Of a stretch of DNA of 64,000 nt, positions 3,639 through 63,806 are shown one piece after another. Made by a program: the position numbers and the translations under genes. The notes under the pieces are model-generated. The model saw only the letters and a program-made list of their open reading frames with translations, searched no databases and had not been told where the DNA came from. Within the stretch, counting starts at the first letter, position 1. Each line of letters begins with the position of its first letter. Source of the DNA: Octopus sinensis (taxonomy: Eukaryota); NCBI RefSeq assembly GCF_006345805.1, contig NW_021831287.1, positions 186,001-250,000 of the forward strand, written 5' to 3'.

Positions 3639-6299
3639 ATGCCCAATGACGTATTACGAATCAATATCCTCAAAGGAAACAAAGAGAAGAGAACTTTCCG
3701 AGGACCTGCCAGATCAATTTCCTCAATAAAGGACACAGACCTTGCTCGGAAACAGCGTCCAAACTATGCTCAACTCGACCGAGAATATAAAACTGACAAA
3801 GAAAACAATTTTATTGAAATTCAAAAACATTGCTTAAAAACTAAAAGCATTTTTGTCGACTACGATTTTCCCGCGGGTCCTCGGTCTCTTGGGAACTTAC
3901 ACACTCAAAGAATTATTTGGAAAAGACCCCAAGTTAGGACTTTTAATTAAAATTAGAATTTTTGTAAAAATCCTGAATTTTTTGTCGACGGTTTTTCCAG
4001 ATTTGATGTGACCCAAGGAGCAGTGGGTCAGAATTTAAATTCACGATTAGGCGACTGCTGGCTTTTAGCAGCAATCCAATCTCTGTCCCAAAACAAACTC
4101 CTTTTCCACCAAGTGGTCCCCGAACAACAAAATTACTACCAAGACTACTGCGGAGCATTTCATTTTAATTTTTGGAGATATGGAAAGTTTTTTTTAATTT
4201 AAAAAATATATTAAGATGGACTGAAGTCATCGTGGATGATCTGCTGCCAACAATCAACGACAAACCGGTTTTTATGCACAGCAAAACTCCTAACGAATTT
4301 TGGAGTGCTTTACTGGAAAAAGCCTACGCAAAGCATTTTTTGTGTTTTTTTAATTTAGACTGATGGGCGGATATGACTCACTTCAGGGCGGGAATACCAT
4401 CGAGGCAATGACCGACATGACTGGAGGGATTAGCGAAAATATTCTCTTGAAGTCAGTCGGGAGTGATTTTTTCTATTTTTTGATGGTCGCCAAAGAACGT
4501 GGTTCGCTTTGTGGGTGTGCCGTTGATCCGGTTTTTTGTATTTTTTGAGAATAAGAATGTTTATAACTGTCCTGAAGAAAGGCTTCCAACTGGGTTGGTG
4601 ACTGCCCACGCCTACAGTCTTACGGACGTGAAAGAGGTTGAGGGGTTGGGTAATGGAAGGTCAAAACTAAAAGCGGGAATGTTGTTCAGTTATTGAGGAT
4701 TATGAATCCTTGGGGGTCTGTGGAGTGGAAGGGTCATTGGAGTGATCATTCGATGGATTGGAATCTTGTGGACAGTTCTGAGCGGAGAAAGCTTGGAATT
4801 GAGTTCTCAGAAGATGGAGAATTTTGGTTAGTTTTTTAATTAATTAACTTAATTGCCAATTAGTACATAAACACCACAAAAACAGTCACGTTGATAAATT
4901 ATATTAATTAAAAATTAGTACATAAAAATCAAAAAAATAGTTATTTTTTAATTGTTAATTTATATTTTTAAGGATGTCTTACAAAGAATGGTTGGCCAAT
5001 TTTACCCGTGTTCAAATATGCCACTTGGGCCCAGACTCACTGACCATGGAGGACTCGGCCAAGTTCTCGTGGAAGAGTTGGAATGCCACAATCGAACACT
5101 CTGCGTGGGTGAGGAGAGTGAATGCCGGAGGATGTCGAAATTATGCCAGTTGAGACACTTTTTTTAGTTTAGACACATTTTGGACAAATCCTCAATATTC
5201 TGTGTCTCTCACGGAATCGGACAATTCGTCGGGGGATACTTCCACCATGATAGTCTCCCTTCTTCAAAAACATGATCGGAGTAGCAAAAAATCACTTTTA
5301 AGCATCGGATATTCCATTTTTCGGGTAGAAGGTCGGGGAAATTGTAGATTCCTTCAAATATGCTCAACGAAATGCTCCCAAAAGAGTTTTTTGTAAGAAA
5401 CAAGTCGGTCGGACAGTCGGCCTCTTTCGTCAACCGTCGCGAGATCTCCGAACGACACGTGTTACCCGTAGGTCATTACGTAATCATCCCATCCACTTTT
5501 GAGCCATACTATGAAAGTGAATTTGTACTTCGAATTTTTTCTGTCAAAAAAAGCTCGACTCGGTTTTTTAGAAATGTAGTTATTTAAGGGAATTGGACAT
5601 ATCTACGCAGATTAAACCAGAGGTTGGTTAAACACGGTTTTTCTAGCGGCCTCCGAGACCCTTGATTGGCCAGTCGGATGTGCTGAAGAAGGCTTTTTTG
5701 TCCTTTGCTGGATCCGATGGGGTGGTCGACGCCTTCGAATTGCAGCAAATAATAAACATTCTTTTTAAAGGTCGTTTATGTGCTGAGTGTAGATTTGAAC
5801 ACATGTGAGGTCAGTTTAGAGGCTGCTCGGGCCATTGTGGCTAGTTGTGATGTTTTATTTGTTTTATTATTTCTAGGAGAATTCGGACGGGACTTTGGGG
5901 TTTGAGGAATTTGTAGAAATGTGGACAAAATTGCAAGAATGGAGGGTTTCCAGTGTTAATCTGATTCAAGACTGTGTTTAAAAGACATGACAAGGATAAC
6001 AGTTATTCTCTCGACAGTTCCGAATTCAGAATTGCTCTGAAAAGTGCTGGATTTAATTTGAGTAATGCACTCATTTCGAACATAATAATTCGCTATTCTA
6101 ATCGGAATGGAGCCATTAATTTTAGTGATTTTCTTCTCTGCATGTGTCGAATTGTCCGTTTTTATAGTTATACTGAGGTGAGGTCACATTTAGATTTGTT
6201 TGAGAAGTTTTATAAAAATGGGGATGCCAGATTTTCGCTTGACGAGGTTTTCTGTTTTGCCAAATGGTCTAGTTCTTGTCACTCAGCACACTTTTCTAA
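3639..6299 (+). CDS. CAPN: Classical calpain (CysPc + C2-like + penta-EF-hand), 17 exons
   Basis: Catalytic triad motifs QGAVGDCW, HAYS and NPWG; also [30 protein letters not shown] and EF hands. 16 introns reconstructed: 15 of 22-29 nt (one GC-AG at 4333-4358) and one of 146 nt (4827-4972). Confidence 0.93.
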
Positions 6300-6847
6300 T
6301 ATTCACTTTAATCATAATATTTAACAATCTTAAATAGGCAACAAATTATTTTATTGGATGTTTTTATCTCAAAATAATTTTGAGATTTGATTTTTCTGGT
6401 TTTTAAGTTTTAAATTTTTATTTATCACCGGGAAAACCAGCCAAATGGGCATGAAAGCATAAGTATACACACAGTAACGAATTTGGCCTGATTTCCACCA
6501 TTAACTAACATTTTCCATAAATCAAAAATATGTCAAAAAATCTTCTGTATCCATAAAATCCTCTGTATTCAATTATGCACATTTAATGCTTTCAATTAAA
6601 AAATTTTTTTGCTCTTAATCTACCATATTACTTTGGGAAGTGCATTTTCTTTGTGGTTTTATAATTTTATTCCCCAATTGTGGATGGACTGAAAATTTGG
6701 CATTTAATGTCACTGGTAAAAGGCGGAACCACTCCAAAGTCGGAACCCGAGTTGTTAATATGAATAAACAATAATTTTTTGATTTAATTTTAATTGGAAA
6801 ATCATAATTTGTTAATTATTTTGATTATAATTAAATTACACGTTACA

Positions 6848-7250
6848 ATGGTTTTTTTGGACTATCAAAAGAAATGCTTTCAAAAATAAGATTTATAAAG
6901 ATTCCGCCTGTTTAGACGAAGGACTGTCAAAGATAGAACGCCTTTTCATCAGAAGTTCCTCGAAGATTTTGCAATTTGACGAAGAAAAAGCTTTTATTTA
7001 TAAAAAAAAGGGAAAATTTTGAGCTTTTTAAAACTGACGAAGCTGAATTAAAGGTGAAAACTATTGAGGTAAACGCATTGATTAGAATTTTAAGGCTGAG
7101 CACAATTCTAACCATTTTGGTATTAAAAAAGGATAAGCTTCTTACTTTATTAGCATCTAAAATATATAGAATAAAACGACCAGAAGTTTGTAAAGTAATC
7201 GGATTCAACCAATCAATAAAGATATGGATATCATCCACCAGCGAATGAAA
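6848..7250 (+). mobile_element. Degenerate Ginger-type integrase N-terminal fragment
   Basis: H..NHFG-I.K...SKIYRIKRPEVCKVI resembles the HHCC region of the integrases at 35.8 and 44.0 kb. A probable 26-nt intron gtaaacg...ttaag is present. Confidence 0.45.
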
Positions 7251-8447
7251 CAATCACTTCTGACATTATCTTAAAATACTGAAAAAATTAAATCAAGATT
7301 TAAATATTCGTTATCAATTAATATCGATTAATCAAAGGGAAGGCCACGTTCCCCTGTAAAAAATTGTTTATGACTATAACATGGCCGTACATGAGACAAC
7401 TCGACATGTAAACTTTTGAAGTTTTTATGCGAGTTGGACATCATGATTTAAAAAGTCATGACGATGGTTCAAAAAAATCATTATAATTTTGTAGATAAAA
7501 ACGTTTATAATCGAAAAAATGCAGAGTATGACAAATATTGCAAACCCTATCCTCACAAAACAGAAATTTTCTGCTACATTTAATGTTAATATAATTTTTA
7601 AAACGTTGATACGATTAGGGCGAGAATAAAATATTATAGAGGAAGACCATAGTTTCATCTGACTGTTTCGCATTTCTACAGTCTAAATTGGCAGGCCCAA
7701 ATGAATAAGAATCCTCTTGATTCGAAAACATTTTAAATTATTGCGTTTATTTCTCGATGTCGCGCTGATTTGTTGAAACTCAAATCATTTAGCTTTTTTG
7801 GTCGACAAGATCGCCGTTGTGGTTAGGGATTTTAGTACCTTCTTAAAATTGGGGACTACAACTACCCAGTTTTACAGATGTTTCAATCCTCGACATTTCA
7901 CCTCAAATCTGGCAATAAGTAAACGCATTCATGATCACGTTTTTCCCCAGACTATCAGATCTATTTCTCTTTTTTTCTCTGCAAAACAGATTAGTTTTCT
8001 TCACTTGTTTACTCTGGTGGCTGCCTACTTTTGTCAAATTGTGATGACGTGAATGTCTCCAGACAATATCGAATCAATCTTTCAACCTCTAAGCATTGAC
8101 CTCTAAGCCGTCTCCTATCGTGGGTCTGCAACTTGTGAAGACTCTTCGTTTTAGTTGTTCGCTACCAAGTTCTTGTAAGGCCATTTATCACAAAAATAAT
8201 GTGAGGTTTACATTTAAATACTCAGAAATGTGATATTGTATGATTAGTTTCTATTCTAGATTTCCGTAGTTTTATGATTTACCCTCCTAATTTAGCACGG
8301 AGTATTAAACTATGGAAAAGTATATTTAACTACCTAAAAGTACATAAATTCCACAATTAAAGTAGTACTGTCAATAAATCTCGAGTCGAGAGGTTCCATA
8401 TGGCTAATGTTACATATATATGAGTGATTGATATACTACTACGACAA

Positions 8448-9068
8448 ATGTTGTATATCTTTGCAGTAATGAGTGCTGTAATGCCTAAAAGTTGTATATT
8501 TAAACATATTTAATAAAGAGTGCTTTAATGGAAAGTGTTACACTTATTTCAACAAATTATTGAACTATCATAAAGCAGATGCTGATTGCAAAAAACGTGG
8601 TGGCGTATTGGCCGTGGTTGATTCGAAAATTACTTACAAATATATATATGGTAGACACTTCACTGTGATGCCAAGACAATTTTGTTAAAAAGGAAAAAGG
8701 ACCTTTTTACATTGGACTTAATGACATCAAAAAAGAAGGGAACTATCGAGATTCCTACGGACGAAAACAGGTATTTCCACAACTTTGATCGAGTCATTGT
8801 TTTATTGGCTCAAAGGACAACCCAACAGTAAGCAAAATATTGAGGATTGTGTCGCGTGGATTTCATCATCATATTTTTGGAATGACATTGTGTGCCGTCG
8901 TCAACTCAAATATTTATGTGAAACAAAAAGTTTATTTATTTTTGTTATTTTCAAGTTCTTCCAACAATACCTCCCGTCTTTGGAAATATGACGAATGTGA
9001 CAGCCAATGGGGAGAACAACAAAATGCAGTCAATGATTTATTTAGAAAATAGCATCGAATATAACTAA
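8448..9068 (+). CDS. Secreted single-domain C-type lectin
   Basis: Hydrophobic N-terminus, then CFNGKCY, A..DC...GG.LA, YIGLND, W..GQPN...EDC, WNDIVC....YLCE after removal of 23-28-nt introns. The last exon is uncertain. Confidence 0.85.
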
Positions 9069-9111
9069 TCCTGATTCTACTTCACTAACATCATTCGGTT
9101 ATACTAATAAA

Positions 9112-12100
9112 CTAATTTTGATTGTTTGAGTTAGGTTTATTGAATAAAGGAAGGAAAACTAGTTTATAGACAAATCGACAACAAGTCTGTCCATGTCTAC
9201 AATTTCTGAGTACTGATTGAGTAGTGGGACACATCGAATTCCTAAAATTATAACATAAAATACCCTTTCGAATAGAACTAATTAAATATGTAGCTTGTCC
9301 CAACAGTTTTTTGGTGTTTGGTTGATGATGTAGTTCAAAGCGAAGAAATGACAGTTCGGGAAATTTAATTTCAAAACGGACAGGATTCCACATGACCACA
9401 CTTATCAATTTTTCAGATACTTTTTGTGACAAAAAATGAAAACCCGGGAAGGGAATGACTACTTTTTTGCAATCACAGGGACATCCGATTGTCCGGATGA
9501 CCAAATATATGACCTGACCTCCTCTGAGGAACGTCGGGAGTACTTTCATTGCAAACAGCACCTCAAAAATATCAAAAAATCATACCCTCACAAAAATAGT
9601 CATTTTTATATTCAAATTTTCAGTTTTTTGGTTGAGGGAAATTGGTTTGAGGAGATATCCACATCTGAAATAACCAGATACTCTACCTTCCGTTGTCTGA
9701 GAAGAGTGCCTGGTTGAGTTGCATGGGTAGGTCCCCGGTCTGGTAATTCAAAGCGACCATTTGGCATCCCAAAAGCCACGGACCGACCGGATCGTAGTTG
9801 GAAGAGTCGACTCTGATTCCGCCTGGGTAGACACGAATTAGAATTTTATTGGTCAGTCTACAAGTCAAGGAAAATATGGATTTTTGAAAAATATATTAAA
9901 AAAGGATATTCTTTTATTCTTTCTGGGAATTTGAATACTCGATTAGAGGTGAGGGAGTGCATTTCGTTATACTGGTGGTCCGCCTCTGCAGTTTATGACC
10001 AATTCACACTTTTTGGGTCGAAACGTTTGGATGAACAATAAATTATCAAATCAGAGAGTTCTTTTGCCAAATACTGAGTTCCTCTTTTTTCTTTTTCTTC
10101 AAAAATTTCATTTGAAGTAATTTTTTCCAACCAAAGTGAAGGACATGAATATAATTTTAATTTCAAATACTCTTTCTTCTCCGGTGGGCTGATATTAATA
10201 ATACTCCCCTCCACTGCCTCATAAAACCCTTTATACTTTGCACATCAGATAGTCTTAAATCCTTCATATACAAATAACGAAATCCCTGCTCTTCGTGATA
10301 GAGAGCATCATGTGCTTCCGCTTTCGAATCGACGGGAACGGCATTTTGTCGAGGAAAGTACCCACAGTATTGGCCGAGAGTGTCCCCCAGTTGCCTATAA
10401 TCTCCCACGTGATTTCTAACCAGCCCGGGAAGACTGTCGAATCCTGTACATTGAGAATATAGCTGTCCTTCCTTAAGTACAACTCCTTAGATTTGCCCCT
10501 TGGGTGGTCTTGATTACTTTAAATGCCCTTATCTGAGATTAACCATCTCAAATACTTTTTCGAGTTGATTTATGAATTTTGGGGTCAGGGGGTGGGTTAA
10601 ACACGTGTTTAAATAAATCGGGGTTCGTTCGAACCTTTTGATGACCATCATCATATTTGGGTACGACCTGGTCCCCACTTTATACACGTGTTTATCCATG
10701 GTCACAGACACGTGTTTGAGTGCATTATTAGCCCTGGTCATATAAGTTTTGTAAAACTACCAAAAACTCAATATTAATTTTTTTGGTGTCTTTCCATTAC
10801 GTAATAAATATGATCCTTCTTTTCGAGTATTTTCAAAAATGAGGACCATTTCGTCCTTGTCCATATAGGGGTAATACCATCTAGAATATAGCCCTGTCCT
10901 TACTTGTAGTCAATGTGGTTCTCCACTTGGGGTACTGGCTGAGTCAATTTTATTTGACTGCACTCAAAAGTGGAAATTTTTATTGCATTTTTGGTGTAAT
11001 ATTCGATTAGGAAATACAAATTTGAGAATATTTGGTCATGTTTTTCAAGTTTATATGTAATAGAATCTGTGTTGTGAAGTTGGCTAATTTTTATGTCCTC
11101 AACTCGATTGCTCATCCTACGAATGAAAAGAGACGTGGTACAGAACTGACAAATGGAGAGAGTCTTCAAATATGTAAATCAGAAATGCCCCCGTCCCCAA
11201 AAAAATATACGACAGCACAATTTCCATTGCAGTCGGGGGACTCAGGACTCCATGAAACCACATTTCCTGTTCGTAAAATTGATATAACTCATCTTCTTGT
11301 AGATTGTGAGGACCTTCTAGTTTGGAGTGGAGCCAAATGAGTTTTTGGCGGGAAAGAAAAAAACAGCAGTTCACCCAATCCTTAAATGTTACAAAATCCG
11401 AGACCTTGTGTCCTGGGTATCTGATCATGCCACGTGAATCGAGGAGGAGGTTGGACAACTCGTCATCGTCGAGTCCTTCTGAGTGCTGTGTGGTTTGAAT
11501 TTTTTTATTTTTGATGATTATTTTGCGGTAGAGAGAGTTGGGGGATGGGAGAGTGGACTCCCCCATTTGAATAGGTTTTTTCAGTAGTTTATCTTTAAAA
11601 ACATCTCTAAACTGTCGAGCCACTACTTTCTGCTGCTCCAAATTGAGATGACACTCAATTGACAAAATAAGCGGAAAATTTGAGTGAATAAATGCATGTT
11701 GATCGATTGCTTCAAGTACTTCCAAACACGTGCATTTGGAGGTCAGTGTATGTCCGTGGTATATCAAAGGAAGATTGTCGGGACCATTCCAGAGGTCGAC
11801 TAACATAAAAAATATATTCAACGTTCAAGACATCGACAGCCCAGTTGAAGACAGCGGACATATGACTCGGCAGTAGATTCGGAGGTCAGTTGGTCCCCAG
11901 TTAAATATCTACATTTGCTTACTGAAGGGTCACGTGTTGTGAGATGAAGCAATCCAGTATTCGTTGAGAGGACGATTCATGTTGTGATGGAGAGTTTTTC
12001 TTTTGGGATCCATTAATCCATTTTTGTCAGAAAAAAGTGGAATAAGTCCCCCTCCTGAAGAATTCGAGGATTTTTGGACAAGTTTTGATATTTCTTCATT

Positions 12101-12828
12101 TTGTTCTGAACTGAGATTGCTCTAAAAAATAAGTTGATTTTTTACAAGCAAAGAAAATGACAGATTTTGAATCGAGGACAGGAATTGACTCATTTCGACC
12201 TGATTGGTCGGTAAATTTAAAAGAGTCATGAGATTACGTAATTGAAATGTTGCCTCAAACGTGGAACATCGAATACAGTCTCTACTATTAGACCTCATTT
12301 TTACATCGGGGATTGCTTAGTAGCTGAGACTATTTGATTGTACAACCACCTTCCGATCATTCTTTTTCCGCAAATATTAATTCGATGTGAGTGTTTTAGA
12401 CTTGTAGATTTTGCTGTAAGTGTTTCTAGAGCACTCGTAAGTTGGTATAAGTCATATTTTTGACCAGTCAACCAAATATATTTTGTGAGGAAACAGTCCC
12501 CGAATATGATGGTCAGTCCATTCTCTTTGGGGACCCCCACCATCTCGTACTTCCGGCCACTAATCCCTCTACGTATTTCCTTGATTTTATTCAACTGAAC
12601 TACACATAAAATAATCAAATAAACGACTTGTTTGATTTATTGCTAACGAAACATGATCTTTGAATACAACCAGTGCTCCTTTTGGGTCGAAAAACACGAC
12701 CACATCGACACATGAGGGGACCATTCTAAGTGTAAATCCCTTTAATATAAAAGTAGATATTCTCTATTTTTTGATTTTCATAAAAATACAGTTTTTGTAT
12801 CTATACAGCGATTTTTTGAAACAAACAT
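9112..12828 (-). CDS. PLCG: Phospholipase C gamma (PH-EF-X-SH2-SH2-SH3-Y-C2)
   Basis: X box SSHNTYLTGDQL...GCRCLELDLWNG...IYHGHTLT; SH2 domains (WFHG, WYYP); divergent SH3 (GW.LGD...GYFP); Y box [15 protein letters not shown]...[11 protein letters not shown]; C2 domain. Start codon approximate. Confidence 0.92.
9858..9909 (-). other. U12-type (minor spliceosome) intron in the PLC-gamma Y box
   Basis: 5' ATATCCTTT and branch box TTCCTTGAC. Removal to AG (9858) or to AC (9852) restores the reading frame; retention gives an in-frame TAG. Confidence 0.8.
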
Positions 12829-14477
12829 TTCTCTATGCAATTAGATTGATTTTGGATAATTTAATTTTAGTAATTTTCATAGCAACATTATCATTACAGT
12901 TTTTATAAATTAATCCTGATTGTAAATCGAGCACATCGGAGTACATTAAGGTCGTATAGAAAATCCTAATTTTCTTTAAAAAAAGGAAATGACTCCTCTT
13001 TTGATATGTAGTAATCTATTTTATAAATATTATACTTAAAATAAAAATTTTGCGGGTTTTTACGCTGGAAAAGGAAAGGTATAAATACAGAACAATAAAA
13101 ATGAAAAAATAAATACAAACTTCTATTGCTCGCCACTCCGTGAATTTCTCAAAGAATTTTACGATTTTTAACTTAATTTGATAAAAATATAATAAGCAAA
13201 TAGAAAACTAGCAATAAAATAACTAATTATTTTTCTTAAATTGATTTTTGATGTTTGAAAATTACTGTTTTATAACCCTTTTTTTGGAGTGCCTTATTCA
13301 GGGGTCGGTATTAGAAATACACAGTAAAACTTCGATTGCTCGCTACATTTTAGTAAGTATCTATAAATGGAAATTATAACCTGAATTTACTATTAAACAG
13401 GGCAAGGAATGTAATTATACACAAATCTCATAACCCAAGGCCGTGAAATTAATTCTAAAAAATTATTCAGTTTTATAGGATCAAACATTTGGCAAAAGGA
13501 TAAAAAAGACCACTAACTACCGTTCATAAAATCAGTCAGCTTACTACGTGATAGTCGTTATTAATGAGGAGAAATTGATATATATATATTGAGGAGAAAT
13601 TGACCATAGAAAATAATAAAAAAGATATAATGGCGTGATTTCTTATCTGTTACTTATGTAGCGTTGTTTTGTAAGAGGAATGGAAAAGTATCGCTTGCTG
13701 GAAAAAGTTTTAAATGTACACAATATCGAAAATTACAATTCATAGATATCGGTCGATTAAAGGATCGATCAACATAACTTTCGAAAATGACACTGAGATA
13801 AAAAGTGACAATTCGGATGGTTAGTTAATATTCGCAATTGCTTTAATTTTCCGCTCACTGATGTGAAATCTTCATATTTCAAAAAATGAACAGGAAAATG
13901 TATTTTGATCAATCAAAACATTCATTTAAAATTGTATAACTGAAATCCTTTCGCATAGTATGGCCAAAGTTCAGATGGACGATAAAACCACGAAGAAGAC
14001 ACTTATAAAAAAAATTTTAAAAATCAAATAACATAAATTGTCTAGATTGTTTGTTAATAAAAAATACCTAATAAACAGAAAAGAATTTATAACTCAGCCA
14101 TACTATAATTATTTGATGTTTAAAACAATAATGTTGCAGTGAACTTTAAATTTATTTCCAAAATGTACAGATAAACATTCAAGCTGACAGAATTTGCAAA
14201 AAATACATTTCTGCCTACAAATTCACGTAAATTTCTGCGTTTTAATGATTGGTGAAGTATTTTGAATTTTCGGTAACGGCCTAGTAACAATGAAACATAT
14301 AGCCACTGCTTTTTTAATTTTAAGATAAAAAATTTCGTAAAAATCAATCAATAATGCCAGGCTTGAAATTTTATTATCAAAATGAAAATCTGATTAAATA
14401 AGATTAGCTAAAAAATAGATAATTAATGAACACAAAACCGACTAAAAAAACTTTAAAAAACACCAAAAAATCTAATA

Positions 14478-15209
14478 TTAAGCATCAGTCACATTAAGAA
14501 AGCTACTAACACGGGAAATAATTCCCTTTCCCATCTTCCCCATGCCCCCAATCTTGTTCAACCCAACAGAAGTAAGCGTTAAATTTGCCATTCGATCACG
14601 GAATGCCGCCAATCCCCCTCCCAACACGGCGGTCGACTCAGAACTCCTCAATCCCCCCTTCACCACTCCTCTCCGCCTTACCATTGGCCTACAACTCAAC
14701 GGAGCCTTCAAATCTCCAAAAAACTCATCATAAAATTTGGCAGGAAAATTATTTTCCAAAAAACTAAACTTTGGGTACCCCTCAAGTGCGCGGGGAATCC
14801 GAAAATAAATCTCATTTCGGAAATATACGAAGGAAAAGGGACTCCTTCTGACACGCTCTTCCTCCTCACTGAGGAACTGGGAAAAGGACTCGTCGGACAT
14901 GATCACTTGGAGACACCGGGAGAGACATTTTTCGGTCAATAAAATAATTTTTATTTCCGAAGATGGGTTTATTAGACATTCTTTTATTTTTGAGGTCATT
15001 TGAGTGTCGAGGGGGATTGGAATTATTTCAATCTGAGTATGAGTGGTTTATGGTACTTTTATAGTGTTTTGAGTGTTAGAGAGAGTTGTTAGCTTAGTTT
15101 TGATTTGCTGGGCTAGGGTGGTGTCCCCTTGGAGGCACATTAGTGATATTATGTGCTGGATTGGCTTCATTTTTAAAGGTTCAAAGTTCTCGGTGGACGA
15201 ATCCTGCAT
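14478..15209 (-). CDS. Hypothetical protein with TIR/SEFIR-like pattern, 2 exons
   Basis: ATG 15209 and a 24-nt intron (gtacca...ctcag) join to ORF 14478-14999. The pattern ISLMC..D..LAQQIK.KL...KIILLTEKCLSRC...FVYF...IPRAL resembles TIR-fold motifs (inference). Confidence 0.55.
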
Positions 15210-15369
15210 TCTTGAAGACCACTAGAACAGATTGTAATTAATTATTTAATAAAAAAATTTATTTATAAAACAAGTTATTAAAATATTTAATTCTATTAAT
15301 AAACGAGAGATTCTCTATTTTAAGCACTAAATTTTTCATTGTATTCTATATTACAGTCCGTCCTATAAA

Positions 15370-15765
15370 GGAGGCACAGTATCACTCAATAGAAGCTCAG
15401 ACTGAAGTTTTAGCTATGAATAATAAATCGGACAGTCCTGGGTTCGAATCCGGGGAGGCTAGTTTTTCAGCTGGAGTCAATTATATCGTTCCCCTGCCAG
15501 AGAGGCAAGTCCTTCTGGCACGACACAGTTGAAAATGAGGATCTCTTACCCTACGGTCTGTTGGAACTACTAATCGGATATGGAAATGCTCAGAAGTCAC
15601 TTAATGCCTACCGAAAAAGGACTTCAAGAACTCTGATCGTCGTCCCAGACCGATCACTGTGGGCAGGATTAAACCTTTCAGAAGGATCTCCGTCGCTTGA
15701 GGAAGTGAATCGGGGATTATAATAGACTGATTTACTTTGGCCCTTTGGTCAATAAACGTCTAAAT
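15370..15765 (+). mobile_element. tRNA-derived SINE-like element (tRNA-Phe-like head with a probable 19-nt tRNA intron)
   Basis: AGACTGAAG[19 nt]ATC...GGTTCGAATCC (B box 15441-15451). The 5' acceptor/D arm is decayed. A GC-richer body with hairpins (TGCCAGA/TCTGGCA; TGATCG/CGATCA) ends in AATAAACGTCTAAAT. Confidence 0.55.
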
Positions 15766-15934
15766 ATCCTCGAATTGCGGCCAAAATTCGAGGTTTTCCT
15801 AAAAATTGAAACATCCGATTATTAATGGTTCTAATTTTTTAATGCTTTTTTGTGCTATATTTACTTATTTGTGAAATAAATGTGCCATTTTTGCATAGGG
15901 AAAAATAGAGAATATAACAAATATATGCTCCCTA

Positions 15935-18900
15935 TTAATAATCTTTCCCGTGTGAGGGAGCTCCCGATTTGATCTCCGACTTAAATTGGGAATCACCAAA
16001 GAGGAGACGCCTCAAATCAGTCAAAAAACAAAAATCATTCAATCGAAGGAGACCCCCGACTATGTCGCCTTTTCTGATGAGTTTCACTTATTTGGTCAAA
16101 TTCACATTAATAAAAGAAAATTTTAATGTTTTATTGGAAAGATTTTGCATAAAAATCAATTCATGTTTTCATACCCGGTGAGGACATGTAGTTCCAAGTT
16201 GTTCGACTTGTCCCGAGTTTTTATTACCATAAAACTAAAAGATGACAAAAAAACACAACCCCTTTGATCCTAACAACCTAAATTGCCTTGATGGGTCATA
16301 AATTCTTTGTATGACTTGATTTTTATAATTTTTTCCAATCACTCCGTGTCTATGCACTGCCAAAATTCCGTTCGAAATGAGCACTAAAATGGTCATTTTT
16401 TCAAACCATAGTCATCCACCTCCACTTCGAATGTTAAAATGGTCGAACTAACTCTTAATCCATTAAAGTCATACACAACCCCCCATTCTTGTGATAAAAT
16501 AACCAAAAAACCTCTAAAACCAACAAAAATCGTGTTATTTGACAACTGCCCCACAAAAATTGCTTCCATTTTGTTATAAATTCCTATTTTTACCACAAAA
16601 ACGTGACCTGTGACGTCACTTGTCTTATCATGGACGACTCCCCAGCCAGTATGGAGGTTCATGTCGACATAATCAAATTCAACACTCAACTTATCGTCCC
16701 TGCTTTGTTAAGAATGAGGCTACTTATTGGTGGGACTGACTCCAAAGCAGAAGAAGGGGTAGGTGGCAGTAGAGGACATCAGAGGTTCCCCAATACGGTT
16801 GAGGGACCGGGGGATGGAGGCACAAATGAGCTTGAAATAAGGCCAGGTCCCCACTTTTATGAGCATGTATTTTCGGTATGGAAGATACCACTGCATGAGG
16901 ACGATTCTGTCGGGCATGGAACACATTAAATAGTCCTCGTTGTTGTTGGGACTTCGGAAGGCTCGGCATATCTCAACGTCCTTCGTTCCCTCTACTTTGG
17001 TGTAGACTCGGCTGTGTCTGGATTGATGAGGAGTAATGACCTGATTTTTGATAGGTTAAAAATGTCGCCGCGTTTTGAAGGTTTTGTACGTTCGCGGACT
17101 AGTCGAGCCAGGTCTGCCATGTCGATAGTATAAAGTTGGGATCCTGTGGCTAAAAGATTAGTGACATTTCATTATTAACTCGGCGACGTCATAACAAGAA
17201 TGACATCATACATATTAATATGTAGCCATAGACATGGTTTGTTTAATATCTGGTTATAAGTGATAGTAATACTTTTCGTGGTGTGAATTCGCCCAATATG
17301 CTCAGACTGGCTAAATATAGCCCGTCTTGTGTGCCCATTAATAGATTTTGTTCTGTTTATAAAAAAGACACCAACCATGTGTTTCGCAAGTTACCCACAA
17401 TTCTGTACATAAAATACACAACGAAAGATTCTCGCATATTTTGATGAGTCCAGCCCCCATTTCCACAGGAGGTGTCGTAGGGATCCCCACAGACTTGACC
17501 AGCTTGCCAATCATAATAAATATTACTTTAATCTGCTTTCTCCAGTCCCAAAAGTAACAAATCCCACTATCTTTAAGTGGTGGAGGATCCTCAGAGTTGT
17601 GCTATCTATTACTACCAATATTTACAATCTGGACAAAGTCAGTATTCCTGATAGTATCAAAAAACTCAGATCGATCCTGTAAATAAAAATACGTGACTTA
17701 CTGAGATGTTAGGAGACTTGATTGTAGTCGGCTTTGGCATGTCCTTGACAAGTTCCTCTAAAGATAAGCTCATAATATTCTTACTGAGGGCGTCCTATAA
17801 TCCAAAAGAGTTAGATTAGTAGGGAAAGGATACCTTCTTGAGGAGATCCACTAAAATTAGTCAATAAATGAGTACATAGTCCTTCCTCTTGTTCGCCCAT
17901 TGTCTACAGGAATCACCACAAATATAAACGTGACGATTCCTTAATTGTCGAGAAAGTTGTGCTTTATAAAGTGCTGCCCCACATTGGATAGACAAGGCAG
18001 GGTTTTTTAGGAAGGGATACTTTGATTATATTACGTAATACTTACATTGAGACAGTCCGAGGCTGTTGGGCGGAAACGGACGCTTTTATTGAGTGCTTTT
18101 TTGATAAAGGAGTTCATTTCCTGAGACCTAAGAGATCTCTCAATCCTTCGACCATTTTGAAGGTTCGCGGACAGTAGGAGACCTGTAGGAATTCTTAGAG
18201 ATGAGATGGAGAGCCGCGAAAGGGTGAAGGTCATAATTAGGGGGAACACGGTCTGCCAATTCGATAGTAGTGATCCCCACACTCCAAATATCACATGATT
18301 TGCCATATCCCCCCTGTCGGTCTGCCGCGATCACTTCAGGGGCCATCCTGTAGATTTACTCCAAGGACTCACCAATAAGGGGTACCGAGGACTGTCCTTC
18401 TCTTGGCTGCAATACTCGATATTCTGGCCGAGACCCCAAAGTCGGCTTTCTTTGATCTACGTAGGCAAACCTAATTTAATTTCCCCAGTACTCGTGAGGA
18501 GAATATTTGCTCCCTTGTGTAATAAAAATGACACAACCTTGATGTCCCGATGGATTTGATTGCAGGAGTGCATATATTCCAGTCCCCGAACAGCTTCTCG
18601 AATGACATAAGCAATCATCAATTCTGGGAGTGACCCGATGGCTGGAATAGTGAGGACATTCAACCGTAAATGACATCTTCCATGGACCCTCCTTCGCCCA
18701 ATTCGAGACAAATCCACAGCACAGATCGACTGGAATTAAACAAGGATAATACCACAGAAATGCTTCATAAATACAAATTATGTTTTTATGCTTGCATTTG
18801 TCGAGAATATCAATTTCGTTTTTTACTATTTCAAAATCGTCTTCTTTTTCTATTTTTATTGACTTTAAGGCGTATGTTTTTCCTGTATAGTTGTGTCTCA

Positions 18901-28252: not shown

Positions 28253-28324
28253 GGGCATTTAGCTCAGTGGTAGAGCGTTCGACTGCAGATCGAATGGTCG
28301 GGGGTTCGATTCCCTCTGTGCCCT
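28253..28324 (+). tRNA. trnC-GCA: tRNA-Cys (GCA)
   Basis: GGGCATT-TAGCTCAGTGGTAGAGC-GTTCGA-CTGCAGA-TCGAA-TGGTC-GGGGG-TTCGATT-CCCTC-TGTGCCC-T cloverleaf followed by a T-run terminator. One T:T mismatch at 7:66. Confidence 0.93.
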
Positions 28325-54342: not shown

Positions 54343-55579
54343 CAGTGGTTCCCAACCTGGGGTCCGCGGAGCCAGTTTTGGGGTTCCGCGAAATTTATTA
54401 TATTTATTTAATAATAGTTTTTAATTATTAAAATATATTAAACATCCACGCTTATATCTTGTTTCTCTTTTGAGTTAGTTGGTCAATTTTATAAAATTTT
54501 TAATGAGAAACAATAATTGCATAAGAGATTCCAAAAAATATTCAAAAAAGGTTTTTTTATAATTATAATTTCAGAAAAGAAAATGTGATGAAAGCTACCT
54601 CTCATATGGGTTTTCTCAGAATGGATCTGATTTACCACATACGGCAGAATGTGTAATATGTCATCATATAATGCCTAACACATCTCTTGTTCCTGCCAAA
54701 CTATCAAGACATTTATTGATGAAGCATTCTCATTTAAAGGATAAAGATATTTCCTTTTTTCAAAACAAATTAAATGCATCTACAAGGTGCAAGTTGGAAA
54801 CGTCCAATTTTGCGAAAGACGACAATTTAAAATCTTATGAAGTATATAATTATTTTAATCAAACAGGTGAGTTATCTTGTAGCACGTTGTGGAGAGGCAC
54901 ATACAATTGCCGAAAATCTTATAAAGCCATGTTAAAAAAAATCATCGAGTGTATTTATGGCGAACAAATGTCTAAGAAACTGGATCTTGTTCCTTTGTCA
55001 AATAATACTATTTCAAGGCGAATTCAGGAACTTTCGGAAAATATTGAAACACAGTTACTAATTCGTTTGAATAATTCGAATGGTTTCGCTATTTAAATTG
55101 ATGAATCAAAGTTAAAGTAATACCAGCAAATCTAACATCAATTGAATATGAACATCTTATTGATTTGACATCAGAATCAGCGTCACATCAGTTCAATAAA
55201 AATGAATCCCTTTTTAATTTTTGGAGGGGATACATTTCAAAATATCCAGATATCTCAGAAAAGGCTATACGTAAACTATTACCTTTTCCAACGACTTACT
55301 TATGTGAGTCTGGGTTTTCAATATATACATCCACCAAAACAAAATATAGAAATAAACTTAATGCTTCCGCTGATATGAGGATACAGTTGTCAACAATAAC
55401 TCCTAACGTTACACAACTATGCTATGATAAAAAATTAGCTCAATGTTCACATTAAAATTGTTTTTTGTTATTACTATTGTGTTTTAAGTGAAATTATAAT
55501 AATTGAATTGAAAGGGGTTCTGCAAAAAATAAATTAGCTCAAAAGGGTTCCGCGAGCACCTTAAGGTTGGGAACCACTG
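54343..55579 (+). mobile_element. Internally deleted hAT Buster/Charlie-like element with micro-introns
   Basis: TIRs CAGTGGTTCCCAACCT / AGGTTGGGAACCACTG; perfect 8-bp TSD CTGTATAT; BED finger, LSNNTISRRI and FPTTYLCESGFS. Introns 54551-54574 and 54842-54866. Confidence 0.92.
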
Positions 55580-59277: not shown

Positions 59278-61018
59278 CAGTCCGACCCCCAAATGGGGCA
59301 CCAAGTGCCCCAAAATGCGGGGGTGCCCCAAAAACAGGGGTTTGTTATTTTTTTAAAAATTAAACCATTAATAAACATCAAAAAACATTTTTACTAAAAT
59401 ATTCAGTTATTTTCTTTTTATTTGTAGAGTTTTGTCTGATATTGTTCGTCAATTTCAGCCGAAAATCAAAAAATCTCGGAGCATACTTGGTGCAACATTA
59501 GAAATTTTTTCTTCTAAATTGTTAAGCAGATCTTTTGTTTTTGCTACGACATTTTCACTATTTTCGGTTTCTGAATATGTATCATAAACATTATTGTTCA
59601 TGTCTTCGCATTCTCCATCAATTGTTTCGTTAACAACTTGATCTAAATGTTCATCTGTTAGACAGTTTTTTGTTGCATAAGAATCACGGTTCCTGTCGAT
59701 TTTCTTCCAACAATTAACAATACTTTTAGCATCTATTTTCTCCCATCCTTTTGAAATTAGCATCATAACCTGACGCAAATTTAATTTACCAATAGAATGT
59801 GTAAAATCGTTTTCGAAATCTTGAAAACATAAAAATTCCATTAAGAAAGAGGAATAATAATCTTTAAAAATCTTGATTATTCCCATATCCAAAGGTTGTA
59901 AATAGGGCGTTGTATTTTTCGGCAAAAATAAAAATTCGATGTTCGAACATTCGGCAGTTTTATGGCATCCCGCATTGTCAAGTATTAATAATATTTTTCT
60001 GTTGTTTTTGCAAAACGATTCATTTATAAGTGTAAGCCAACTCATAAAAGTCTTTCCAGTCATCCATGCATTTTGAGAAGATGAATACAATAACCCAAAA
60101 TCTTGAACATCAAAATTTTTTAGACACCGAGGTTTTTTATATTTTCCAATAATCAATGGATTAAGTTTTTCCCCGATTAAACTGCAGCATAGAAGAACAG
60201 TGAGTCTTTCTTTCCCTTGTTTATAACCAAAACACGGTTCGCCTTGTTCAACAAATGATTTTTGAGGAGTTCTTTTTATAAAAAGCGCAGTTTCATCACA
60301 ATTAAATATATTCTCAGGTCCATATTTTAATACTTTCTGGTCATATTTTTCAAAATAATTTTTCACATAAGATAAATCACATGAAGCTTTTTCACCACAT
60401 ATTGACTTGAATTGAAGTTCATGCCGCAATTTAAATCTATCAAGCCACCCATTGGAAGCTTTAAAAGAAGTAAATCCAATTTTTGAAGCTGTAACTAAGG
60501 CAATTTTTTTCAAAATAGGGCCTGAAATCGGAATTTTATCTACGCGTAGTCTTTGAAATATTTCAAAGACTTGATCATCAAATTTATCTTTATCGGCTTT
60601 AAATGTGTCATATTCCTCAGAAATAGTATTGCCGTGTTGCAAGAAAGGTACAATATTTCGTTTTATTCTTGATATTGTTCCTTTACTTGTGTTGTACTTT
60701 TTCATTAGTTGCCTCTCAGATAAATTTTTCTTCAAAATTTCTTTAGCAATCTTCAATTTAGTTTCGTAATCCATAACCACAACAATAAATATAAATTGAA
60801 AATAAAACAAAAAATAATTAATTTATTATAATTTTATTTTATTTTTAATTCCTTATAAATGATTTTATGGTGCCCCAAAAATTCCATAATTTTTTATCGA
60901 TTTTTATTTTTTTTCTGCCAAAATGTACTTTTGGAATAAAGTGCCCCAAATTGCGGGGGTGCCCCAAAATCCGAGGGTGCCCCACCCCTGGGGTCTGCCC
61001 CATTTTGGGGTCGGACTG
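59278..61018 (-). mobile_element. pogo/Tigger element B, near-intact
   Basis: TIRs CAGTCCGACCCC(C/A)AAATGGGGCA, TA TSDs, subterminal GTGCCCCAAA repeats. Confidence 0.95.
59455..60774 (-). CDS. pogo/Tigger DDD transposase (intronless)
   Basis: HTH (FKASNGWLDRFK) and catalytic NCDET / LDNAGCH / LQPLD. A probable 1-nt homopolymer frameshift shortens the extreme C-terminus. Confidence 0.93.
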   Translation of the reverse strand: MDYETKLKIAKEILKKNLSERQLMKKYNTSKGTISRIKRNIVPFLQHGNTISEEYDTFKADKDKFDDQVFEIFQRLRVDKIPISGPILKKIALVTASKIGFTSFKASNGWLDRFKLRHELQFKSICGEKASCDLSYVKNYFEKYDQKVLKYGPENIFNCDETALFIKRTPQKSFVEQGEPCFGYKQGKERLTVLLCCSLIGEKLNPLIIGKYKKPRCLKNFDVQDFGLLYSSSQNAWMTGKTFMSWLTLINESFCKNNRKILLILDNAGCHKTAECSNIEFLFLPKNTTPYLQPLDMGIIKIFKDYYSSFLMEFLCFQDFENDFTHSIGKLNLRQVMMLISKGWEKIDAKSIVNCWKKIDRNRDSYATKNCLTDEHLDQVVNETIDGECEDMNNNVYDTYSETENSENVVAKTKDLLNNLEEKISNVAPSMLRDFLIFG

Positions 61019-61466: not shown

Positions 61467-63806
61467 ACGGTCAGCTTAAGGTAATTAAATCTTATTTGTG
61501 TGTCGCTTTTTTGGCTGCTGCTACTCTGCCTGCCGCATCTCCGGCTGCCCCATTTCCGCCAGTGGTTTGTCTAATCAAGGTCACTAAGCTAAATCTCCGG
61601 ACTATAAAGGCTCTTAAGCATTATCTTAACTGGCTGTTAAAAAAATTAGACAGGTTGTTGCCGTGGCGGCAGAGATTTTTTTTGTTTATACTTTTTTACA
61701 AATTTTTAAAGTTTTTTCATTTCTTTTGTTTTTAAATTATTTATTTTTATTTGTTTTTTTTTATTTTTTTGTTATTTTCTACAAATTCAACCGGATTGAA
61801 TTTTTAAACTCCTTAGATCCCTCTGGAATGCCGAATCATCTTTTAAAGTTAAAGATAGGCGTTCCAGTGGTTTTATTACGAAATCTTGCGCCACCTAAAT
61901 TATGCAACGGAACGAGGTTAGTTATCAAAAATTTGATGGCTAACGTAATAGAGGCGACGATATTCACAGGTAAGTATAGAGGTGAGGATGTTTATATTCC
62001 ACGAATTCCGATAATTTCTGATGAATTACCATTTAGATTTAAAAGGCTGCAATTTCCTTTGAGGATGAGTTTTGCAATGACAATAAACAAGGCCCAGGGA
62101 CAGTCATTAAAGGTAGTTGGGTTATTTTTAGAGAGTGAGTGCTTTTCACATGGACAGCTGTATGTGGGATGCTCGAGGGTAGGCAGAAGAGAAAATTATT
62201 CATATATGCCAAGGAAGGACGGACGACAAACATCGTTTATCAACAGGCGATAGAATAGGGTTACATTAAACCAGGTAGTTTTATACATCTACATAAACTT
62301 ATAGTTGTTTGATGAAACAGGCCCTCCGCAGGAGCTAGGTCGCGGTGAGCGAGGCGAGCTGCCGAGCTAGTTTTTTATATTTTCAATATCCTCAACGTCT
62401 TGAAATGTATCATTTTCAGAATATTCAAAATTAAGAAATTCTTCGACTTCTAAGGGATCAAAAATGTCAGTTTTTTCTACTGCAATATCTTGAACTTCAA
62501 CTACATGATTCTTTTTGAATGGGTTGCTTAATATTCCGAAACAATTTGCAATCGTTTTTTCAGACACATCTTCCCAAGCCATTTTTACGAAAATTACAGT
62601 ATCCTTTAGAGTTAACTTTTTGTAGGAACTGTATACTGAAATATTTTGCTGTTCCAACAAATCAGTCAAATACATTAACTTGTGTCGAGTAAAATGTGTT
62701 TTAAATGTTTTTATTATACCCAAATCCACAGGTTGAATAAGACCAGTACTATTTGGAGGAAAAAACAATATTTTTATGTTATCCAAATTTGATGGAACAC
62801 AATGTGAAGGACAATTGTCCATGAGAAATAAAATTTGCTTTTTTTCATTTTTGAGATGGTAATCAAAGTTAGTAAAAATTGTTCCTGTCATCCAAGCTCG
62901 TTTTGAGCTATAATAATCAATGAAACATTTATAGTCAAGATTTAAAGCATCTTGGCATTTTAGGTTTCGAGATCATCACAGGTTTCAATTTATGATTTCC
63001 ACTCATATTTGAACATAGCATAATAGAAACAAGATCTTTGAAATTTTTATATCCTTGAAATCTGTTTCTACAAATACTCTTCGAAGGAATCAGCTTGTAA
63101 TGCAATCCCGTTTCGTCCAAGTTATAAATTTGATCGGCATTATAACTCTTTGATATTTCTATGAATTTTTCGATAAATAAGTCGACATCTACTGGATCAT
63201 TAGTTCTCATTTCTCCATGTAACTTGGTCATTCGAAAACCATGCCTCTTTTTGAATTTATGAAGGTATCCATTTGAGTTTTTAAAATTATCCAGTTTTAA
63301 TTCAGCTGCGAATCTATCAGCCAAATACTGACATGAAACATCTTTATTTTGATTTTTATAAGTTAAAATCTGTATTTTTTGATAAAAAGTGAGACGAGTA
63401 TAATTACCACGAGAATTGTTCGAAGACATAAAATAACTGAAATTTTATTAATTTGCAAATTATATAAAATATGTTTTAAAATTTATGGTCAATTTGAGAA
63501 TTGGCCACTTTCAATGGAAATTCGAATTTTTCTTAAGATAATTTTATAAGTGTGGTCAATTTCAGAGGTGGCCAATTTCAGAGGAGTCACTGTAAATTCA
63601 AATTCAGAGCATTAAAATGAGAAGTAATGTCAACCAGAAATGCAAATTATGCAAGCTATTCAGGATCACAAAAGTATGAAGCATCAAAATTTTTTACTTT
63701 CAGAAAATAATCGTACTTCATTATGCGAAGAAAACAATCGCTTCAACATCTATCCCCTGCTTAGCCATCTAACATTAGTGTGAAAGTATTATTGGCTTGT
63801 AACATA

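Follow-up and report, generated by a model that had tools for sequence, protein, structure and literature searches.

Results

A U12-type intron in a PLC-gamma gene

The window analysed here, 64,000 nucleotides of the unplaced contig C7758 in an Octopus sinensis assembly (G000; 2.72 Gb, about 30 chromosome-scale contigs), carries on its minus strand a PLC-gamma gene, identified by its Pfam X and Y domains, its top named homologues, which are PLC-gamma, and its aligned SH2 and SH3 regions. Nine GT-AG introns of 22-27 nt (median 24 nt) are common to two spliced alignments of the gene; 3-4 more predicted gaps (23-88 nt), on which the alignments disagreed, are excluded from this count. The region around the intron described below contains the following features, all on the minus strand:

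9164..12217: PLC-gamma gene over its aligned length, 5' end not fixed; nine GT-AG introns (22-27 nt); two spliced alignments
9986..10009: neighbouring ordinary GT-AG intron, 24 nt; alignment
9910..9985: upstream exon with the Y-box helix region, which lacks about 5 residues relative to homologues; alignment
9858..9909: U12-type intron of 52 nt in its preferred AT-AG reading, phase 2; sequence, host register, sister introns
9901..9909: U12-type 5' splice site ATATCCTTT; identical 9 letters in the host orthologue
9864..9872: U12-type branch site TTCCTTGAC, predicted branch A 9865; motif, also in the host intron
9858..9859: AG as preferred 3' end (branch A -8); HMM scores
9852..9853: AC as alternative 3' end, giving 58 nt and a branch A at -14; in frame, aligner choice with one of two homologues
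9687..9857: downstream exon, PI-PLC-Y domain; Pfam PF00387, E 5e-23

RTATCCTT and TTCCTTRAC are the recognition sequences of U11 and U12. The preliminary description of this DNA had proposed a U12-type 5' site at 9909 and a branch site within PLC-gamma, and the proposal is confirmed by the motifs, by shuffles, by a contig from another study and by the host orthologue. The pair of ATATCCTTT and TTCCTTGAC occurs once in the 64-kb window, and none of 100 shuffles contains any. Retention of the intron leads to an in-frame stop, and no GT-AG alternative fits the frame among GT/GC-AG introns of 15-109 nt starting within 150 nt after 9985, both as had been claimed. A GC-AG intron of 103 nt does fit; it was rejected, as it removes 17 conserved codons and has the bottom score among 11 candidates.

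A contig from run X4, which bears another host label and comes from another study, differs from the window by 15 letters and 0 gaps over 9740-10050, and is about 92% alike over 9740-12130. Among the 12 of these 15 differences that were listed, none falls in the 5' motif, the branch motif, the AG or the AC; one lies within the 52 nt and two within the neighbouring 24-nt intron, and the changes in the flanking exons are mostly silent. Run X1, possibly the source sample, reads 9855-10050 unchanged. A sequencing error at 9909, named beforehand as a possible refutation, is excluded because the X4 contig spans the intron without a listed motif change; X1 likewise reads the 5' motif unaltered. Elsewhere in 4000-18500, runs X3 and X5 contributed pieces interrupted by gaps of 24 and 97 letters, of which the 24-letter gap lies inside PLC-gamma (piece 11356-11668) and fits a 24-nt GT-AG stretch at 11404-11381. 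None of these pieces bridges the U12-type intron, and X2 and X5 gave no match over 9730-10050.

The PLC-gamma gene of the host itself, on chromosome-scale contig C17 (G000:C17:22643350), has a 1,599-nt AT-AC intron with ATATCCTTT, TTCCTTGAC and a branch A at -13. It interrupts, in phase 2, the codon eight positions ahead of the RxYP Arg. Read with AG, the window intron falls in that very codon, and seven whole codons remain between the junction and this Arg; read with AC, it splits the codon six positions ahead and leaves five. Gene, codon, phase, 5' motif and branch motif are thus all shared with the host intron, which differs in its AT-AC ends, in its branch distance and in being about 30 times longer. 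Because the host has a U12-type intron at the same codon and phase, the minor intron of PLC-gamma is old and no chance motif; this also answers, in the affirmative, whether the orthologous intron is U12-type in another animal. The comparison supports an ancestral intron position, and on sequence grounds the stretch is likely a real, ancient U12-type intron that has been miniaturised.

Likely dicyemid origin of the window

Dicyemids are tiny parasites living in cephalopods. A 5-mer model trained on the window gave negative scores for 44 of 44 chromosomal training loci (leave-one-out) and scores of +11 to +36 for stretches of C7758, C8999, C9489, C12467, C6303 and C1794; when retrained, it scored C8703 and C12470 at +16 to +32. 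The separation is imperfect, with one coding-rich host locus at +5.1 and one unplaced locus at +3.9. The unplaced contigs that score as parasite, called window-like below, are C7758, C8999, C9489, C12467, C6303, C1794, C8703, C12470, C9061, C12762, C8591, C9300, C8829 and C12463.

On one of them, C9061, which is not the contig of the window, lies a Pax6 paired box 98% identical to Pax6 of Dicyema acuticephalum and at most 79% identical to the other 119 sequences listed. The nine PLC-gamma introns (22-27 nt) fall within the size range of about 22-30 nt for Dicyemida. Since composition, the Pax6 marker and introns of 22-27 nt as published for dicyemids all point the same way, the window is likely Dicyema DNA within the host assembly. 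Two Pax6-like genes (C9061, C12762) and a higher GC content near C8999:26000-35999 may reflect a second dicyemid species or paralogues. The window itself has a tRNA gene at 28253-28324 on the plus strand, its sole Rfam match, and open frames at 54569-55096, 59455-60822 and 61630-63444 that we take, from their motifs, to resemble DNA-transposon and helicase remnants.

Minor introns in four further genes

Four more genes on window-like contigs contain U12-type introns of 51-61 nt, bringing the number of genes to five with PLC-gamma:

HSBP1: AT-AC, 51 nt, branch A at -9; the Pfam register leaves exactly one residue
MCTS1: GT-AT, 61 nt, branch A at -8; top of 7 in-frame ends against all three homologues, next AG out of frame
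GGPS1: AT-AC, 55 nt, branch A at -8; the human register, given gapless exons, leaves room for exactly one residue
C8999 gene (ARHGAP39-like): AG at -9 (54 nt) or AC at -12 (57 nt)

The last gene presumably is ARHGAP39-like, judging by its motifs; Pfam assigned no family to its two junction exons. Against the PDB, neither the HSBP1 exons nor the second MCTS1 exon had more than chance matches. MCTS1 is present in near-identical copies 27 kb apart (L070 and L098; G000:C12467:208142 and 235327), which share an identical U12-type intron and show a difference 12 nt past the branch motif that leaves the protein unchanged under GT-AT. The distance between the first intron base and the branch A is 43, 45, 46, 48 and 54 nt in the five genes. 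Minor introns (51-61 nt, n=5 genes) are therefore about twice as long as major ones (22-27 nt, n=9).

These introns were found with patterns demanding near-perfect motifs. The strict pattern, with 12-42 nt between motifs, matches 31 times in G000 (control 24), ten times on unplaced contigs and five times on window-like ones: the window intron, one locus each on C8999 and C9489, and a C12467 gene in two copies. All five are in sense orientation at an exon edge, where about 0.6 would be expected at the host rate in 65 Mb, a hand estimate that takes the D. japonicum genome size given in PMC6736024 as a proxy. Other spacings yielded nothing window-like, either at 0-11 nt (22 matches, 1 unplaced, host-like) or at 43-72 nt (18 matches, 2 unplaced, both host-like). 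A variant branch pattern gave 30 matches, 5 of them unplaced: one is window-like (C1794), two contigs are host-like and C9304 is unscored. Looser patterns added no locus: one produced 299 matches, the first 100 listed all on C1-C4 and mostly a host repeat; another 106, with no new window-like locus among the 100 listed; a third 43, whose 8 unplaced matches are the five known ones and three host-like ones. In the host repeat (C1-C4 and others) the U12-type 5' and branch motifs stand 5 nt apart, which produces many spurious pattern matches.

The PMC11347168 supplement records minor introns for human HSBP1 and mouse Mcts1, the match being by gene and not by position; it has no rows for PLCG1, PLCG2, GGPS1 or ARHGAP genes, and it lists responsive introns only.

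Elsewhere in the window, at 17795-17833 on the minus strand, a 39-nt GT-AG intron begins with a perfect U12-type 5' site, GTATCCTTT, lacks TTCCTTRAC and exceeds the 22-27-nt introns in length. It may be a minor intron part of the way towards becoming a major one, or a minor intron whose branch site is a variant.

The 3' end of the PLC-gamma intron

Of the two in-frame acceptors named in the preliminary description, both hold: AG closes an intron of 52 nt with the branch A at -8, and AC one of 58 nt with the branch A at -14, at the cost of two codons relative to AG, the frame being kept in either case. The same description suggested that AT-AG ends may be used. We regard AT-AG as the probable choice over AT-AC; the host register, the sister introns and the HMMs favour it, and the protein alignment is undecisive. 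The sister introns favour AG in that those ends that homology fixes (AC, AT and AC) sit 8-9 nt from the branch A.

With an HMM of the PLC-gamma set, the AG reading scores 115.6 bits and the AC reading 113.8; with one of 46 distinct PLC segments, the scores are 41.8 and 36.8 bits. The AG reading places an Ile on the conserved hydrophobic column -10, where 37 of the 46 segments have Phe. In the six bases between AG and AC, the one X4 change seen is at 9854; silent under AG, it fits the AC reading equally well, being intronic there. Pairwise spliced alignment ended the intron at AC (58 nt) when run against one homologue, and at AA (61 nt) against a second. Under the PLC-gamma HMM, readings of 34, 28 and 19 nt, in which the branch motif becomes coding, and one of 46 nt, which ends in the branch motif, outscore AG; those with a coding branch motif score higher because the region is about 5 residues short under AG. 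Protein alignment was dropped, as too weak, as a judge between AG and AC.

Counted from the Y-box helix Met to the RxYP Arg, the AG reading has 25 residues against 30 in the host and most PLC-gamma homologues (29, 31 and 33 in three of them). The earlier claim that the AG reading matches the PLC-gamma spacing thus stands from the junction downstream and fails upstream of it, where by alignment about 5 residues are lost, whichever acceptor serves. The shortening shows no gap in X4, which makes it a deletion common to at least two parasites.

That the same minor intron mainly ends at the AC (9853-9852; AT-AC, 58 nt), or that both ends are used, is the alternative that survives best, though we hold it to be clearly the less probable course. 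AT-AC is the canonical pair, found also in the host, so AC would be the ancestral end. The distance of -14 is near the published branch-to-3' optimum of 11-13 nt, nearer than -8, and AT-AG is termed disfavoured (PMC3584512). The ARHGAP-like intron is equally ambiguous, with AG at -9 or AC at -12. For PLC-gamma, the pairwise aligner picked AC with one of two homologues; the Asn-Lys pair that attracted it is Asp-Gln in X4. Against the AC end, all three sister introns with a fixed end have it at -8 or -9, the HMM scores are lower by 1.8 and 5.0 bits, and the intron would be moved by two codons relative to the host, with the helix then 7 residues short.

Components of a minor spliceosome

The preliminary description inferred that a working minor spliceosome is kept. 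Genes for three of its snRNAs occur on window-like contigs, all above the Rfam gathering score:

C1794: U11 gene, 118 nt, 63.2 bits
C6303: U12 gene, 128 nt, 56.0 bits
L095:4487-4573 (G000:C8703:380486-380572): U6atac gene, 87 nt, 51.7 bits
L096:1537-1648 (C12470): second U6atac copy, conserved only in its 5' half, 39.6 bits

The window-like U11, U12 and U6atac are about 70% alike to those of the host. They lie on contigs other than that of the window, to which they are tied by 5-mer composition only, and more than one dicyemid species could be present. The U12 keeps an Sm site and the branch-pairing box GUAAGGAA, which is complementary to TTCCTTGAC; its loop that binds 65K, which we take to be CUACUUU, is present. 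In the U6atac the AAGGAGA box is kept and the distal 3' stem-loop that the Rfam model contains is missing; GGC replaces the AGC triad in both copies, while the host U6atac has AGC. Beside the GGC, the parasite U6atac has a C at the last position of an AGAGA-like box. These two positions are presumably base-triple partners and may have changed together. The U6atac core is predicted to form 9 pairs with the U12 5' end, at -10.0 kcal/mol, compared with -3.1 kcal/mol for the host pair and -6.0 and -8.9 kcal/mol for the crossed pairs.

A U6atac pattern requiring the AGC triad had 58 matches, of which the two unplaced ones are host-like; it missed the parasite gene because the parasite triad is GGC. 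The host accounts for 43 of the 45 Rfam matches to U6atac above cut-off, mostly chromosomal and many flanked by repeats (e.g. L001-L008); the chromosomal copies are likely retrocopies. Chromosomal U6atac, U11 and U12 matches were all counted as the host's, and none was credited to the parasite.

For U4atac, an Rfam search that scored 51 of about 95,000 candidates gave three matches, each on a chromosome-scale contig, and a pattern search gave 89 matches, 14 of them unplaced, of which seven were scored and all seven are host-like. SNRNP48 and CENATAC were found only on chromosome-scale (host) contigs, in exon-wise searches that are weak for short, fast-evolving exons. Window-like zinc-finger matches in the SNRNP48 search (C8829, C12463) have two tandem fingers and are, we assume, GTSF1-like.

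The organism thus likely has its own U11, U12 and U6atac, and from these we infer that the parasite would have a complete minor spliceosome. The three snRNAs bear out that part of the original suggestion, and U4atac, SNRNP48 and CENATAC, which these searches did not find for the parasite, leave the rest of it less firmly founded. The same gap is what speaks for a relic, that is, for an incomplete minor spliceosome with the intron spliced by the major machinery or mostly retained and the gene truncated; the loss from U6atac of the distal 3' stem-loop, described as important for its targeting (PMC5855946), would fit as well. We consider a relic very improbable: the three snRNA genes retain their pairing boxes, the changes in U12 and U6atac are predicted to be mutually compatible, the motifs are intact across five genes, the exons around the PLC-gamma intron have diverged from X4 mostly by silent changes, and the component searches may miss short exons that evolve fast.

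Discussion

We propose that an ancestral minor intron in PLC-gamma is removed by the parasite's own minor spliceosome and cut at the AG 8 bases past the branch A, a reading to which we give a probability of roughly two in three. U11 would pair with the 5' site, and the GUAAGGAA box of U12 with TTCCTTGAC, bulging A9865. The AAGGAGA box of U6atac would then replace U11 at the 5' site, while U6atac pairs with the 5' end of U12. The 3' end would be set mainly by distance, 8-9 nt past the branch A, with AG, AC or AT tolerated. It is scarcely credible that a shorter non-canonical intron is excised instead (e.g. 34 nt, AT-AT, 9909-9876) and the branch-like motif is coding: such a reading has the top HMM scores (121.1 and 44.5 bits) since it restores the missing length, and comes closer in length to the major introns, but it has neither branch motif nor AG, an identical branch motif stands at the corresponding place of the host intron, the two-motif design recurs in four other genes, and a perfect 9-nt motif is unlikely by chance.

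In the proposed history, an intron once kilobases long would have been cut down to about 50 nt as the genome shrank, and the distance between branch A and 3' end would have fallen from about 13 to 8 nt, the ancestral AC being exchanged for AG with the exon edge fixed. Shrinkage probably stopped near 50 nt because U11 and U12 bind jointly and need room between their sites, a steric limit. The preliminary description spoke of a length floor about twice that of major introns; the twofold ratio is observed in these five genes, and a floor as a general rule is not supported, since minor introns of Blastocystis have a median of 39 nt (PMC10639083), so that the limit of about 50 nt is lineage-specific at most.

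A broader reading, about which we are evenly divided, is that dicyemids, whose introns are about 25 nt long, run a stripped-down minor spliceosome, with its ruler reset to 8-9 nt, the last base nearly free and minor introns of at least about 50 nt. Its snRNAs would be the 118-nt U11, the 128-nt U12 and the 87-nt U6atac with GGC and with the distal 3' stem-loop missing, and it may lack 48K, CENATAC and a recognisable U4atac.

The minor spliceosome has been lost in fast-evolving nematodes, myxozoans, oikopleurids and tardigrades, according to the text of PMC10639083. Dicyemids are among the most reduced animals, and its retention in them, if true, would be a counter-example to such losses. They would offer a natural minimal system, with a few genes, snRNAs of reduced length and, in one and the same gene, minor introns double the length of major ones, in which the required U11-U12 distance and the way the minor spliceosome measures the 3' splice site become testable. 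The passage from AT-AC to AT-AG at a fixed exon edge is the proposed intermediate of subtype switching. The parasite contigs sit inside a host assembly, and such introns would escape annotation tools.

We found no report of dicyemid minor introns in the literature searched, which covered neither subscription papers nor external data tables nor preprint supplements. The available texts of PMC2222250, PMC6543705 and PMC6736024 mention neither minor introns nor the minor spliceosome, and 'minor' and 'U12' occur 0 times in that of PMC13644364; no mention of Dicyema was found in PMC10639083 (main text and one supplement file) or in the PMC11347168 supplement.

Ultra-short introns are themselves established for dicyemids (PMC2222250, PMC6543705, PMC6736024, PMC13644364), with a published mean of 26.2 and median of 27 nt, and the major introns of 22-27 nt described here resemble them. 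The closest likeness to the PLC-gamma intron is found in AT-AG U12-type introns (PMC1557818: 11 in human, 8 in mouse; NUP210, USP21), which have RTATCCTT, TTCCTTRAC and the AT-AG pair, need no pyrimidine tract and switch with AT-AC between orthologues. The window intron differs from them in its 52 nt and in a predicted branch A 8 nt from its end, not 11-13, and non-canonical ends affect 1 to 3 of 5 genes here, compared with about 4-5% in vertebrates. Blastocystis (PMC10639083) likewise has miniature minor introns, many with AT starts, in a compact parasite genome; unlike the present organism it is a stramenopile, and its 253 minor introns, compared with those of five genes here, are shorter (mean below 42, median 39 nt) than the window-like ones. 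In Arabidopsis, U6atac also has GGC in place of AGC (10.1101/825604), a precedent for which the triad was dropped as a novelty; the window-like U6atac differs in its 87 nt and in the missing distal 3' stem-loop. The U12 class, AT-AG ends and tiny minor introns were therefore already known; the novelty lies in the phylum, in the short distance from branch A to 3' end and in the compact form of the snRNAs.
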